Below, in pieces: positions 6,452 to 51,817 of a stretch of 64,000 nucleotides of DNA. The stretch comes from Leucoraja ocellata (taxonomy: Eukaryota), in the NCBI GenBank assembly GCA_036785375.1, contig JAWMAR010000331.1, positions 1,550,001 through 1,614,000 of the forward strand, written 5' to 3'. A model generated the notes under the pieces. The model saw only the letters and a list, made by a program, of their open reading frames with translations, did no database searches and had not been told where the DNA came from. Numbering within the stretch: the stretch's first letter is position 1; each line of letters begins with the position of its first letter. The translations under genes and the position numbers were made by a program.

Positions 6452-6639
6452 AAGGTAGACAAAAGTGCTGGATAAACTCAGCGGGTGCAGCAGCATCTAT
6501 GGAGGGAAGGAATAGGCAACGTTTCGGCTTGAAACGTTGCCTATTTCCTTCGCTCCATAGATGCTGCTGTACCCGCTGAGTTTCTCCAGCACTTTTGTCT
6601 ACCTTCGATTTTCCAGCATCTGCAGTTCCTTCTTAAACA
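6452..6639. mobile_element. Fold-back (inverted) Penelope pLTR pair
   Basis: Arms of about 75 bp centred on CAACGTTTCGGCTTGAAACGTTG; flanking duplication TAATATGT(A/G)ATGTA. Confidence 0.8.
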
Positions 6640-13414: not shown

Positions 13415-13423
13415 ACTTACCTG
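13415..13423 (-). promoter_or_regulatory. Candidate 5' splice donor CAG|GTAAGT in the DIRS-A leader
   Basis: Perfect consensus, GT at 13420-13419, 37 nt upstream of the gag ATG. Confidence 0.7.
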
Positions 13424-41438: not shown

Positions 41439-43662
41439 TAATTGAAAAGTACAATAGAATCAGTCAATTTAATCTTGAAAATAGTTAGCAACTTATGAAT
41501 AACACAACTAAAGGTGAATAAACTTGATGGTGCATTGCCTTTTTTGATAATATAACATCCTTATAGCATCTTCTTTGTCTAGGTGGGCAATAATGGACAT
41601 CTTTCACGGGCAATTAACATTCATAATTGTGTTGCTGTATATTCTAGTTCAGAAGATTAACTGAGCACTTCATGTTGCCATTAATGCTGATGAACCTCGG
41701 TGTCTTAATTTTCAATTGCTTTTCAGTAATCCTCAAAATGCTTGGGAATCTGGAATGTACTTCCAGTAATTTTAAGATGCACTAAGTCATGCTCAAATTG
41801 TACTTAAATGTATTCAATTAATTGGGGGGGGGGGGGGGGGGAGAAGCCTGTTCAATGTATTGTACTGAACAGTCTATCTGTTCATATCACTACTGCTGCT
41901 CTGAAATATTTTATAGAAATTTGAAAAATAAAACATCTTTTGCTTGTTAAAGGCTCCTCGGGAGAAACCTATGCAGAACTATGAATGAGGGAGAAAGGAT
42001 AAAAACAAAAGTGGGTACTGAACTTAAGGTCAGGTTTAAAAAAAAAGTCACTTTCATCTTATTCCATGAACAGAAAGATTCACTGAAGTGTAATGACAGT
42101 GATCTGTTTTTTTGGTGTGTTGGGGGTGGAGTGAGACTATTTGTGTGAGTGTAATAAAATAGTAAGATTAAACGAGAACTTACCAGTTTGAAGTTTGATC
42201 TGTATTTTATGAGGAGTTACGATGAGGGATTTCGTGAAGAACCCCGCTTCCACGCATGCGTGTCATTCTTCAAAGCAGCGGTGTGAGGTCACAGGAACCT
42301 ATAATGATCTAACATAGTAAGATTATCAAAGAGATACCAGTTTTTGATATGATCATAAGAGGGTGGGAGCGGAGGGCACGAAATCCCTCATCGTAACTCC
42401 TCATAAAATACAGATCAAACTTCAAACTGGTAAGTTCTCGTTTAATCTTACTATTTTACTTCGGAGTCACGTGAGTGACTTCGTGAAGATTTCAAAGCTC
42501 TGTGACCTCATGCCGTGGAACGAGTCCATGCTTCACAACTGCCTTGGGTATTGGGAGAGAGCATCATTAGTAATTTTAAAACACAATTATACAAAGAGTT
42601 GTGTGGTATAATGAAAAAATTATATAACATTTTTTAAAATTTGAGAATCATAGCCCTGTAACCTTTCGGGCAATTATTTTGTTGGACATAAAATGTCTTA
42701 ATACAAATGATGGCTCCAAAATTTAACTGGTTTATTATAAAAACCTGTGGAAAAACCCTTTTTGAATGACCATCCTGCCATTCTGAGGATTTGGTCTGAG
42801 GGTACCTGTACAAATTTTTGCTGCGGATGTTGCTGCAGCCCTGGTGGAATGAGAGTTAAAACATTAGTGTCATTTTTAGGACCTATTTGAGCCACCTAAT
42901 ATAGTTTGAGTCGTGACCCTTTCATGCGGTTTCTTTTAAGAGATAAACAACTCCATTTTCTGACCTCGAATGTTCTTAGTATATTCCATATATTGTTAGA
43001 TGTGTCTTGCTATACACCGTCGTTTGCCATATGGGTGTACCATAAATTCAAACACTTGACCTGAGGAAACCCGATCTGTTTTCTTTTATTAAATCCTGTA
43101 TGACAACACCAGTTTCTCGGTGAGATGATCAGGGAGTCCAGGCTCAGTTTGCTTAATGGCTGGACTTGTTGTGCGGTAAATAACACCATGAGCATAACCA
43201 TCATCCTGGTCTGTTACTGAAGTGACAACGCTGTTATGAGCTACAAGCTCCTCAGCATGTTGAGAAACGACACCCACGTCCCAGATTTCGGAGTACCTGG
43301 TTTTCTCACCAGGGGTGCGTTCCCACCGCTTGCCGCTCCGTTCCTTGTGATAGGTAATTGGAGAGTGCACTTGTGGCACTATTGATGGCACTGTAGCTCC
43401 ATCGATTATCATAATGGAGGCTTGTAAAAATTCCAATACGGCCAGAATGTTCTTGGCCTTTTGGTCGAGGTTGTTGTCCAAGCAGTATATGCCCCATTTC
43501 TTGATGTCCAAAGGTACTGCTTCCGTGTTGACAGTCTTAGTGCAGATGAGATGAGATTCATCGTCCTGTCTGACAGCCCAATGCCGTGCAGTGGGTCTTT
43601 AGCCTCTATAAATCCATAGTCTTATGGCATGGATGACAGCCTCCAGTCACTGGAAAATTAAT

Positions 43663-43664
<2 letters not shown>

Positions 43665-43710
<46 letters not shown>
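43665..43710. repeat. T46 homopolymer inside the DIRS-B pol remnant
   Basis: Seen directly. Confidence 0.9.
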
Positions 43711-43711
<1 letters not shown>

Positions 43712-45587
43712 GCTATGTTCAATAGGGAACATGGTTCTAAACCATCCCCTGTATGACCGAATACCATGATTTAGAAGGTCAGTCGGAACTCTGAGAATTC
43801 CAGATGCCGAGTGTAGTTGAATTATCCCTAGTACCCCATTGATGGGGCCGAACGGGGGAAAAACATCACCCTATGGCTTTGTTACATAACAATGCCAAGC
43901 TGGTTTTAGAATTTTAGTAAATAATATTGGAGCTAATGATTGCCCCTATTGTAAGCTCTATTGCCAAAGTTCCTCTTTTGAGTCAATGCCTGCCATATAG
44001 AAAACCCGCAGCTGACACCAAGTCTTATCAAGAAAAGAGAGTATCCATCTTAAAATGAATATCTAGAACAAATGTGTTTAGGGTTAAAATCAATGATAAT
44101 CCTGCAACCCTACTCTATTTATTTTTAATAAATATGTTTGATACAATTCTAATGTTCCATGAAAAGTATGCTCAATCACATCTTTTGTGTACAATTTTTG
44201 TAGACCATGTGGGTTTTAGATTGTTTGGTTTATGTAAGGACAAAATGCCCTTCTGGTGTATGTTGTACTGTGGTTATTGGAATGAGTAAATCTTATCAGA
44301 TAACCCTGAATACTGCTGAGATTATATGAATCTGTAGTGATTATATACCATACATAACTGTAGTGTTGTAACTCCCCTACCATCATAGGTCCCTATTTTA
44401 AAACAGAAGAAAACCCCACCCACCTACCTCCATGGTTACTGGTGGTTGTGTTATTTCCTTGGTTTTTTGACAAAGGAGGTTCTGGTTTGATATCTCTTGT
44501 TCGGGGTTGTGTGGGAGGTTGAGGTTCCCGCATCTTCCAGGGTGGCCGCCCTGGCCATACCCTAAAAAAGGATCCTGCGGGTTATTGATTTCTAGCACTG
44601 CCACTGGTATGAGCCACATTATTTATGGCGTTGCCTGTGGCCGGTATCATGCTCCAAAATAGGCCCTTGCGCTGGCCTTGATGAGCCCCAGTGTCTTGGC
44701 TTTGTCCACTCACGGTTCTTTGTTTGCAAATGGTAGCATTTTTTGGGGTCCCAGTGCTGGCTGAATGGCCGCCTTCCATGTGTAGTTCAGATCATATTGC
44801 ATATTACTAAACAGAGCTAGTGCGTCTAGATGGTCTTTGGTTACCTACATTTAGTCCAGGGTGCGAGTGTATTCTATGATGCCTTCCGTCAATCCCTTTA
44901 AGGTTCTCTGGATCTTGAGGTCCTGGTTCCTGATGTTCGTCCCCATATGCTGCCAAATGCATTGGTTTACACTGGGCACCCGTAATGCCTCACCGTTGCC
45001 AGGTGGCAGATGTCTGGCCAGTGTCTGTAAATTTTTTCCCTGTTGGCGTTTGTGGCCAGACATATAGTAATACTATTGCCATCCTGGATCCAAGTCTACC
45101 CATGTTTGACTTGGTTAAAGTAATCAGCCACCATGTCCAGCAGAGTCCCTGCTGTGTTAGGATCATGGGACGCTGTATTACCAGGCTCTGGCCCATCAGG
45201 GTCCTGCCTACTCTTTTTTATAGAGTTAGAGATCTCTAGGGTCCCGCACGGGGTACCCATGTGGGGCTTAACTGCTGCCCACTTGTCTTTTGTTCTGCGG
45301 ACCCCTCTTGCAAGTCAACCCAGAACTGACCCACAGTGCTCCCCTCTGATGGGGTAGAAGCATTGTGCAGCCCTCAAAGAGGTACTGCTGTGGGTTTATC
45401 ACGTTGGAGCAAGGCTCCATACACCGCTTCTTCCCGCTCCAGCCCTCTCGGGCGCTGGTTGCCGGCGGTTTTATGCAAAGTCGGACCCTTCTCAGTCCAC
45501 TACCCCCGTACTGACGGCACTGGTCCCTTGCGGTCGTTGCAGCCGGTCAACCCCACTCTAACGCCCTCAATTCTGGGCACTCCTACT

Positions 45588-45643
45588 TATATGGTCCTTA
45601 GCTAAGGAACATATAAGACATTAAAACTGATGATAACAGCTAT
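45588..45643 (-). pseudogene. U2: Second, more diverged partial U2 copy (about nt 37-90)
   Basis: TAGCTGTTATCATCAGTTTTAATGTCTTATATGTTCCTTAGCTAAGGACCATATA aligns to TATCTGTTCTTATCAGTTTAATATCTGATACGTCCCTTATCTAGGGACCATATA. Confidence 0.75.
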
Positions 45644-45653
45644 TATAGATTTT

Positions 45654-45749
45654 ATTTAATATATGGTCCCTAGATAAGGGACGTATCAGATATTAAACTG
45701 ATAAGAACAGATACTACACTTGGTCTTAGCCAAAAGGCCTAGAAGCGAT
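45654..45749 (-). pseudogene. U2: U2 snRNA 5' domain (nt 1 to about 96), embedded in DIRS-B
   Basis: Minus strand ATCGCTTCTAGGCCTTTTGGCTAAGACCAAGTGTAGTATCTGTTCTTATCAGTTTAATATCTGATACGTCCCTTATCTAGGGACCATATATTAAAT; includes the GTAGTA branch-recognition sequence and stems I, IIa, IIb; stops before the Sm site. Confidence 0.95.
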
Positions 45750-45908
45750 CATTGTAACTAAAACCCTGGTACTCACATACTGGTCCCTTGTAGTAGATTG
45801 CAGCCAGACAACTGCCAAGTCCTTTGCTGCTGAAAAATGAATTTTCTCACCGTGCTGGAGCGAAGTTGGGCACAGGTGTTTTCCTCCTCCGGGAATCGAT
45901 GTGCCCAT

Positions 45909-46150
45909 GCAGCTCCTGCCGTTGCCAGCTCCTGCCGTTGCCAGCTCCTGCCGTTGCCAGCTCCTGCCGTTGCCAGCTCCTGCCGCAACCTGCGCTCCTG
46001 CAGCTGTCAGTGCTCCTGCAGCTGCCGGCTGCCACTGCTGCTGCCCGTACTCCTGCCGCTGCCGGTACTCCTGCAGCTGCCCGTACTCCCGCAGCTGCCG
46101 GCTGCCACTGCTGCTGCTGCCGACTGCCGCTGCTGCTGCCGCTGCCGCTC
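45909..46150. repeat. 16-bp tandem repeat (GCCAGCTCCTGCCGTT, about 4.5 copies) grading into CTG/CCG-rich repeats
   Basis: Seen directly, inside the DIRS-B 5' region. Confidence 0.9.
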
Positions 46151-47540
46151 CTCCGCGGTTCTCCCGCCGGCCTTCTGCAGCTTACATGGACCCGGTCCAT
46201 GTCTGCACCTAGAAGGTAAGTTGAAGGAAACGCAGGGTCTCTTACCTGCTGTTCCCGACTTTCCTTCTCCCGCTGGTGACCGTCGTTCCCTCCGTTGCGG
46301 GTTGGAGCCGCTCGGACCAAACCCCGGTGTTCACGGGCCTGGTCCTTCGCGGCAGTTCCGCAGCCGGTAAAACCCGGCTGTTCCTATCCCGGTGCCTACC
46401 TTTTGAAGAAGGTTTTCGTCCCCAACGTCCCGTTCCGACTCCATAAGTGCCGCTGCACTCGCTGAGCGTTTCGAGCCCCGGTACCGCTGGTCCGTGCTGT
46501 CTGTCCCGCAGCCTCTGCGCTGGCTGCTAGCGACTGGTCCCAAGTCAGTCTCGCTTGAGACTGGCATACGGGACCTCTTTACTTTGCTTCCCGCCCGGCC
46601 GAGAGGTGAATTTTGCCGGTGCGGGAGCAAAGTCGGGCACAGGTTGTTCCCCTCCAGGGAACTCGTGCTGTTGCTGCTGCCGGCTGCTCGCCCTCCACGG
46701 GTCTCCCCGCCGGCTTTCCGCAGCCACCTAAAAGTAAGTAGTAAAAGAGGGAAACGCAGAGTCTCTTACCTGCTGTTCCCGACTTTCAAATTCTCCCGCT
46801 TGGGGAACGCCGTTCCCCCTGTGTGACTCGTTGCAATGCGTGTAGCGATATGACACGCATGCGTGGAAGCGGGGTTCTTCACGAAGTCACTCACGTGACT
46901 CCGAAGTAAAACAGAAGCTTTTTGTTAATTTTCTCATTGAAGTTTATGTTACTACAGCTCACATTGAATTCCTGTGGGTCACGTATTAGTCAAACAGTAC
47001 ATCACAAGCAGCATTTGAAGCACAGCTTAAAGTTTTTCCTCCACTGTGTGTCCTTGCGCCACTGGATAATTGATTTTTACAAACATTTAATAGAGCGTGG
47101 AGCTTTTCATGCCAGAAATATATGTCAGGAATTTGGACAGGAAGGTTGCAGGGCCCCACATGATTTTCTGTCCATTAATTTTAATATTACAAAACCTCTT
47201 GCGCTCCAAACATTGATTGTTGATAGTGTTTGCTTCAAAAGAACAATATGCTGAGAACAAGATTGTATAAAATCCACCCATCCATCTCTAGAATTTGCAA
47301 TATGTTATATAGTTCTGTTTATATATTTGGTAGGAGGCTTCTAAGTTGCATTAACATATGAAATAACCTGTTGGGCCAAATTAACTTTTGATAATATTGA
47401 TGACACCATAACAAATTCGTATCACTCGCATGATATCAGCAAACAGAAATTTCAGCTGGTGTTTGCTTTGAAACTTGGTTGTATGGACAGAGCAACTACT
47501 TATCCTAGATATAACACAGATTAAAGCATTTGTGGTTTTA

Positions 47541-51632: not shown

Positions 51633-51817
51633 ATTAAGAAGGAACTGCAGATGCTGGAAAATCAAAGGTAAACAAAAATGCTGGAGAAACTCAGCGGGTG
51701 AGGCAGCATCTATGGAGCAAAGGAAATAGGCAACGTTTTGGGTCGAAACGTTGCCTATTTCCTTTGCTCCATAGATGCTGCCTCGCCTACTGAGTTTCTC
51801 CAGCATTTTTGTCTACT
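51633..51817. mobile_element. Fold-back Penelope pLTR pair
   Basis: Arms centred on CAACGTTTTGGGTCGAAACGTTG; flanking duplication AGTTTAGAAGAATGA. Confidence 0.8.

Follow-up and report, generated by a model that had tools for sequence, protein, structure and literature searches.

Sense-oriented snRNA inserts in the DIRS retrotransposons of Leucoraja ocellata, including a subfamily that carries the 5' domain of U2

The capture of snRNA sequence is known for LINEs (PMC4476161, PMC11838501) and for crocodilian SINEU (PMC4494074), and here it is found in DIRS elements. According to the accessible text of these sources, a target site duplication (TSD) accompanies 70-100% of the truncated snRNA copies that LINEs make (PMC4476161), chimeras of snRNAs with LINEs, U6/LINE-1 among them, arise by template switching or RNA ligation (PMC4476161, PMC11838501), and the repeated U1/U2 additions in SINEU are ascribed to template switching (PMC4494074). 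Old snRNA copies associated with LTR elements were described by Giles et al. 2004, as cited in PMC4476161. Similarly, MLV is described as packing cytoplasmic pre-U2, plus truncated or tailed snRNAs from the decay pathway (PMC4378196). As for DIRS elements themselves, the available portion of PMC7192593 states that the primer of their reverse transcription is not determined, that the reverse transcriptase (RT) of DIRS-1 works in trans, and that DIRS are reported to make single-stranded cDNA. The word "DIRS" is absent from the accessible text of PMC11838501, and our literature search of titles and the beginnings of abstracts, with Repbase entries, subscription journals, and supplements outside its scope, returned no paper on snRNA inside DIRS.

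The U2-bearing DIRS element and its subfamilies

The window is the whole stretch of 64,000 nucleotides analysed here. In an Rfam search of these 64 kb, a minus-strand U2 match at 45749-45582 (110.9 bits, E 1.5e-21) was the only one above its gathering score. It comprises two pieces, copy 1 and copy 2, that lie within a non-autonomous DIRS element of a subfamily designated S1 (Table 1), with ~1.16 kb of DIRS sequence 5' of the insert. Both Rfam and the 12 host U2 genes agree with the preliminary description of a segment that covers U2 nt 1-96, starts exactly at nt 1, and ends just before the Sm site (2 nt ahead of it); the upstream flank of the host genes is missing. Because copy 1 stops at nt 96, it does not qualify as a functional U2 gene, which would be of full length with the Sm site and have a promoter and a 3' flank. 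The start at nt 1 and the 3' truncation are those of a LINE-made pseudogene, and the TSD of such a pseudogene is lacking. Likewise, we recovered the second, decayed partial copy (nt 32-90), the sense orientation of the segment (both pieces and the DIRS are on the minus strand), the donor-like motif at 45780-45771, 21 nt upstream of U2, and the lack of a visible TSD or poly(A) at the segment. The pairing in copy 2 that had been called stem-IIb-like is not a stem IIb retained by compensation and instead forms the core of a shifted 32-nt palindrome (45617-45586). The 3' junction of copy 2 is identical to that of S3, a subfamily with a single U2 copy.

Table 1. Features of the U2-bearing DIRS element, with positions in the window
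Feature	Position	Strand	Remarks
Non-autonomous DIRS, subfamily S1, full length, both termini	42155..46914	-	40 other full-length insertions, differing flanks
5' terminal repeat	46850..46911	-	inverted match to 42213-42266 (92.6%) and to part of the ICR, 42451-42489 (97%)
Upstream copy of the DIRS sequence that flanks the first U2 capture as a duplication (decayed, limits approximate)	45750..45815	-	113-114-nt duplication in S3 versus U2-less sisters L289, L206, L196
Donor-like hexamers, overlapping	45771..45780	-	ordinary DIRS sequence, part of the duplication; spacing to U2 varies among elements
U2 copy 1, host U2 nt 1-96	45654..45749	-	94/96 identical to 12 host U2 genes fetched; differs at nt 10 and 27
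A-rich linker between the U2 copies, 6 nt	45648..45653	-
U2 copy 2, host U2 nt 32-90	45588..45647 (about)	-	11 substitutions and 1 insertion; remains of an older capture
Near-perfect palindrome, 32 nt, from copy 2 changes	45586..45617	.	93.75%
Downstream copy of the duplicated DIRS stretch (limits approximate)	45505..45587	-
gag remnant	44743..45027	-	tblastn, 38% to the intact DIRS at 13555-8749
RT/RNase H remnant	43609..44593	-	residues ~200-617 absent; stops and frameshifts
Tyrosine recombinase (YR) remnant, broken	42725..43594	-	26-27%; intact counterpart is PF00589
Internal complementary region (ICR)	42377..42489	-	82 nt, 100% complementary to 42155-42236
3' terminal repeat	42155..42266	-	inverted-repeat matches

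The S1 element is DIRS1-like in having inverted terminal repeats together with an ICR, in the order of its broken gag, RT/RNase H, and tyrosine recombinase remnants, and in its manner of insertion, with 40 different flank pairs, identical termini, and no long TSD. A second DIRS at 13555-8749 (minus strand) is intact, with open gag, RT, and recombinase frames that match PF00078 and PF00589 (gag has no Pfam match). Its termini are 97% identical to those of the U2-bearing element over the first 40 nt, and the Rfam search of the window detected no snRNA inside it. Intact elements of this type are candidate helpers for mobilizing the U2-bearing element.

Several other features were recorded in the window. 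An A run of ~47 nt (43710-43664, minus strand) marks the junction between the RT and recombinase remnants. Leader units at 46769-46728 and 46245-46209, and also near 13420 (all on the minus strand), hold a donor-like site followed ~25-42 nt on by a pyrimidine tract and AG, just ahead of the gag start; this spacing is too short for an ordinary vertebrate intron, and both sites may use distant partners. The DIRS terminal repeat contains a 9-nt word (46885-46877, minus strand) in common with the 3' part of host U6 (L170) that pairs with the U2 5' end, a coincidence that could be due to chance. Long hairpins with sub-threshold miRNA matches at 6476-6582 and 51694-51791 are part of a family of repeats in this 64-kb sequence and resemble fold-back copies rather than miRNAs.

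The U2 segment is not restricted to a single locus, as a one-off insertion would be. The 25 nt upstream of U2 have 143 matches in the genome, all 40 scored matches to the region 45450-45900 are ~100% identical, and both U2 copies are present in 40/40 S1 insertions, which are full length and separate and come from a sample (the first 40 of 100 places listed) picked without regard to U2. These 40 insertions are 95-99% identical to the element of the window (blastn, indels included) and have differing flanks. In addition, coverage of 44400-45670, a span that takes in copy 2, by public contigs (two organism labels plus one run without a label) is complete in all bins, so the family is not peculiar to this assembly; at two copy-2 positions these contigs show the older state. 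Subfamily S2 has the same two-copy structure, and S1, S2, and S3 have a common 5' U2 junction. S4 is a sister subfamily without U2 and bears a full-length U5 ~195 nt downstream of the U2 site. In one branch of S2 (L107, L110, L120, L121, L122), the T run just 5' of copy 1 has lengthened to >10 T, with an acceptor-like CAG after it, resembling the leader acceptor of L135. At two separate loci (L141 and L132, one of them inside an S3 DIRS), a LINE-like tail interrupts U2 at nt 76/77, which may be a preferred insertion point for such tails.

snRNA captures across the DIRS of the genome

The DIRS elements of this genome contain 12 separate snRNA captures: eight of U2 (counting two in the window's own lineage), two of U1, and one each of U5 and U6. 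All are in sense orientation (12/12, p=0.0005), and all start at nt 1 (12/12) in searches that were keyed on 5' ends or whole RNAs, which inserts without nt 1 would escape. The first 31 nt of host U2 gave 618 matches with at most one mismatch. Among the first 40 exact host-type U2 starts listed (contigs C3-C171), 36 are located in DIRS and none has the upstream flank of a host gene (0 nt of upstream match); for 20 of these starts, a second examination over 10 kb of sequence placed 16 in DIRS and 4 outside, and the other DIRS calls were made by shared junctions or blastn. These 36 loci comprise 22 of S2, five of S3 (four with nt 1-90 and one that is broken at nt 76), and nine that represent six unrelated sites, of which two fall within the leader and four within the RT/RNase H frame, with ends at about nt 91, 91, 174, 181, 185, and 186. 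The genome has 12,277 DIRS 5' ends, which at 4.8 kb per element gives a DIRS share of ~1.7% as a lower bound. Seven U2 lineages are DIRS inserts versus four non-DIRS inserts (p=1e-10, or 8e-6 at a fivefold larger DIRS share), with the DIRS event count somewhat inflated because amplified lineages are more readily seen.

The other snRNAs gave smaller numbers of events. For U5, 16 of 23 family matches lie in DIRS and all derive from one full-length capture (S4); these DIRS passengers illustrate how snRNA look-alikes multiplied by DIRS mislead annotation. None of the 30 U6 family loci and 2/30 U6 pattern loci (of 38 matches) lie in DIRS, representing one capture. In a looser search for U1 (98 matches), 9/70 loci are in DIRS, with a gag capture in eight copies and an RT capture in one; some of these 70 loci repeat those of an earlier 20-locus U1 set (0/20 in DIRS). 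For U4, 0/12 loci were in DIRS. The U1 0/20 and U4 0/12 results had suggested that only U2, U5, and U6 of the post-catalytic spliceosome are captured, an idea refuted by the two U1 captures of the looser search. The RNA-side searches covered U1, U2, U4, U5, and U6. Taken from the DIRS side, 40 unbiased DIRS starts on C1 contain one with U2 and none with another Rfam family, in a sample that is too small for rare cargo and in which partial RNAs can score below the gathering threshold.

Two further groups of loci were observed. Outside DIRS, L139, L140, L309, L330, L363, and L334-L348 have heads of U1 nt 1-54/56 or U2 nt 1-50/54 on a common non-DIRS downstream sequence, possibly a Tx1/Keno-like or SINEU-like family; 11 U1-headed loci of this group are on small contigs with near-identical flanks, and in L352 a U1 head precedes U2-like sequence. 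L137 and L138, which are independent near-full-length U2 captures, each lack one U of the Sm-site tract, which may reflect slippage or the capture of Sm-defective molecules.

The junctions were compared with the closest empty relatives among the sequences examined. DIRS sequence is duplicated by 113 nt (S3), 3 nt (U5), and 2 nt (U6), is unchanged at L134, and is deleted by 4, 9, 27, 71, or 137 nt elsewhere, with uncertain breakpoints where the empty relative is distant (51-59 of 70 identical). No TSD of 7-20 bp, the LINE size, was present at the captures compared with empty sisters. In 7/11 events, the DIRS sequence that follows the position of the 5' junction in the empty site matches the initial 2-3 nt of the snRNA (background 0.06, p=9e-7). 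The microhomology is below 2 nt in the other four, with none for U5 and for S3, the first capture of the window's own lineage, and 1 nt for U6 and the gag U1. Homology is not evident at the 3' junctions, roughly half of which carry 2-5 extra A. Of the eight U2 events, four end at nt 90-96, just ahead of the Sm site, and four near the 3' end. The inserts occupy unrelated positions, spread over the leader, gag, and RT.

History and constraint of the two U2 pieces

The 3' junction at nt 90 is common to S3 and copy 2, and all three subfamilies (S1, S2, and S3) have the same 5' junction, from which we infer that the first capture in the window's lineage comprised U2 nt 1-90. Copy 1 is most simply explained as a second, younger capture from host U2 that re-entered via the resident 5' end, since nt 91-96 are present in copy 1 and absent from S3. 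In an alternative history, the first capture would have comprised nt 1-96 and S3 would have arisen by collapse; the ages favour two events. On a clock derived from a tree of the 3' halves of 14 elements, copy 1 has 2 changes since the S1/S2 split versus 2.0 expected in S1, and 0-2 versus 1.4 in S2; a copy 1 dating from the first capture would be expected to have 6.5 (S1) and 6.0 (S2). The U2 of S3 has 0-3 changes versus 2.8 expected. The comparison of divergence proposed in the preliminary description thus shows copy 1 changing at the rate that its flanks predict, an outcome listed there as evidence against its reading. The U2-less L289 clusters with S3 on the 3'-half tree, which reflects either U2 loss through the direct repeat or a mosaic.

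Copy 2 has changed faster than the clock (S1, 11 vs 4.0, p=0.003; S2, 7 vs 3.7, p=0.08). Its palindrome score, 6 for the host state, reaches 9 in S2 and 13 in S1, as compared with a maximum of 10 in 2000 simulations, in a test that was chosen after the pattern was seen. A general drift of DIRS toward palindromes was considered; in the 3' half it is at most weak (of 202 substitutions, 87 raise and 61 lower the score, p=0.04), and there two strong palindromes are derived versus six ancestral. With little such trend elsewhere in the element, the copy-2 effect is local. The likeliest cause would be templated correction of a quasi-palindrome in single-stranded DIRS cDNA, with selection for the hairpin as the alternative. 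The drift of copy 2 toward a palindrome is not predicted by a model in which the inserts are pure passengers.

Of the internal regions of S1, copy 1 varies least (2/96 sites vs ~5-15% in neighbouring regions). Purifying selection on copy 1, suggested by S1 alone, was rejected, as the comparison with the copy 2 control is not significant and the younger age of copy 1 explains the pattern. Over U2 nt 34-90 matched across 63 copies, there are 7 derived alleles in copy 1 versus 11 in copy 2 (p=0.24) and 2 versus 6 shared alleles (p=0.14), whereas within S2 alone the derived alleles number 6 versus 5; the power of these selection tests is low, and the subfamilies are young. Weak constraint on copy 1 would be compatible with the low S1 variability and the 2 versus 6 shared variants. 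Variation of the S3 U2 is like that of its flanks (0.068 vs 0.060-0.113), and variation of U5 is below that of its flanks (0.123 vs 0.155-0.261) in copies that had been selected for their U5 score.

Only in S1 does the donor-like motif lie 21 nt from U2, S1 having lost 15-19 nt there. In S2 and S3, the donor hexamer is 42-46 nt from U2 or is absent. Four of the ten other U2-bearing loci examined have a donor hexamer within 60 nt upstream, at 42-46 nt, and five of the six unrelated U2 sites have none within that distance. The element contains five donor hexamers on each strand (vs 1.95 ± 1.37 in Markov simulations) and thus no strand bias. The motif as a conserved partner of U2 was rejected, since its distance is not fixed. 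Among 158 RNA reads on 44400-45670, in both mate directions, no joint with splice-type ends was detected; this result applies to that span and not to the donor at 45780 or to copy 1. None of the sequencing runs listed as holders is recorded as RNA.

Mechanism, alternatives, and relation to known systems

The DIRS of this genome hold 12 sense snRNA inserts with nt-1 starts and empty sisters, the inserts are enriched in DIRS, and copy 1 changes at a neutral rate. We consider it probable (roughly 0.7) that the inserts arose by out-and-back template switching of the DIRS RT onto co-packed snRNA and are carried as passengers. Capture by template switching, as proposed for the window in the preliminary description, is strengthened by at least 11 further U1, U2, U5, and U6 captures with the same signature. 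In this mechanism, snRNAs would be packed with DIRS RNA, probably as cytoplasmic precursors or as 3'-trimmed, sometimes oligo(A)-tailed decay intermediates, before Sm binding. Such co-packing is suggested by analogy, because MLV packs pre-U2 and truncated or tailed snRNAs. The RT would enter the snRNA at the 3' end or internally (U2 nt 90, 91, 91, 96, 174, 181, ~185, and ~186), run off the capped 5' end, and re-anneal on the DIRS RNA via 2-3 nt, upstream or downstream of the exit. In the lineage of the window, the first capture would have taken up nt 1-90 with the 113-nt duplication. The second, of nt 1-96 with the A-rich linker, would have re-entered via the resident U2 5' end, replacing its first ~31 nt, and the U2-bearing lineage would then have been amplified in trans by an intact DIRS with the same termini.

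The junctions also bear on an unlikely variant that begins with RNA ligation, which joins a 3'-trimmed snRNA to a cleaved DIRS RNA; the RT then jumps a single time, from the snRNA 5' end back to a DIRS RNA, and the inserts are again passengers. Ligation would account equally well for 3' junctions that lack homology, and it suits their frequent extra A, with microhomology at the 5' junctions only; it is a listed route for U6/L1 chimeras in the accessible text of PMC11838501. However, U6 makes up most of the known ligation chimeras (70.9% of L1 chimeras, same source), whereas here it accounts for 1/12 captures and U2 for 8/12. Moreover, near-precise inserts (0, -2, -3, +4 nt) require re-entry near the exit, which is easier with the same template still bound. 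It is very improbable that LINEs made these inserts as snRNA pseudogenes that fell by chance into DIRS copies and were later amplified: although LINE-type snRNA copies occur in this genome (L142, with a TSD) and 3'-truncated pseudogenes starting at nt 1 are described as a common class (PMC4476161), 7/11 U2 lineages fall within 1.7% of the genome, all 12 inserts are sense, LINE-size TSDs are missing, and duplications and deletions exceed 100 nt.

The remaining alternatives give the insert a function. The preliminary description had raised a cis-acting decoy, and in its wider form the U2 5' domain would sequester branch points, U6, or U2 proteins, protecting the unspliced RNA so that carriers spread. 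We regard such useful cargo as quite doubtful, and the decoy idea is not supported by the data. The U2-bearing lineages have been amplified (143 S1 flank matches; S2 at 22/40 loci), U2 was captured twice at one site, and in 63 copies no shared variant falls in the copy 1 branch-pairing hexamer or in its stem IIa, all of which would fit a useful cargo. However, copy 1 keeps to the neutral clock, and purifying selection on the pairing regions, as expected of a decoy, was not found (limited power, young subfamilies). Two fixed S1 changes in copy 1 reduce the duplex energy with host U6 from -12.0 to -10.0 kcal/mol in helix II and from -6.0 to -5.3 kcal/mol in helix I, and six S2 copies have a common double change at nt 68-69 in stem IIb. 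U2 is present in only 1/40 unbiased DIRS and absent from 3/4 clade members in that sample; sister elements without U2 have spread too, and one of those three (L275), nested in S1 at 0.7% distance and the single such copy observed, has the whole U2 block deleted. The unrelated insert places, the capture of U1, U5, and U6 as well, and the variable placement of the donor motif also argue against this reading. At rather low odds, DIRS particles might selectively pack snRNAs, U2 foremost, with an RT that routinely switches, and the twice-capturing lineage might in addition use the intact copy or the copy-2 hairpin as a cis signal (for splicing escape, export, or packaging) to outcompete its helpers. 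If selective packing is true, the genome would be a dated record of the contents and assembly place of DIRS particles.

Twelve captures with readable junctions offer a sequence-level view of how DIRS reverse transcription starts and proceeds. Under template switching, the captures imply that the DIRS RT can exit its template, copy an unrelated capped RNA to the first base, and return via 2-3 nt. They would also name the RNAs likely to be in the DIRS particle, namely Sm-class snRNAs, not the L1-preferred U6. The capture idea is directly testable in the Dictyostelium DIRS-1 system.

Compared with the known systems as described in the accessible text of the sources, the DIRS captures share features with each. 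Like the U6/LINE-1 and snRNA/LINE chimeras (PMC4476161, PMC11838501), they involve sense snRNA 5' parts and recurrent independent events. However, the snRNA of the LINE chimeras, mostly U6, sits at the 5' end of an insertion that is truncated, dead, and bounded by a single TSD, whereas the DIRS captures are internal to a complete YR element, are mostly of Sm class (U2, U1, U5), have no TSD, and are inherited and amplified. Utopia/Keno (PMC4640811) and Dada (PMC8869645) are transposons that adjoin U2 sequence as they insert into snRNA genes; here, in contrast, RNA-length U2 pieces without gene flanks sit inside DIRS. MLV (PMC4378196) offers a Gag-encoding retroelement that takes up pre-U2 and truncated or tailed snRNAs, the pool of substrates inferred here, although it is a case of packaging and not of heritable capture, whereas the DIRS case is known from genomic inserts. 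Similarly, crocodilian SINEU (PMC4494074) are amplified non-autonomous retroelements with U1/U2 sequence, but they are non-LTR elements in which the snRNA forms the 5' head, whereas in the DIRS it is an internal insert and the DIRS termini and ICR are kept.
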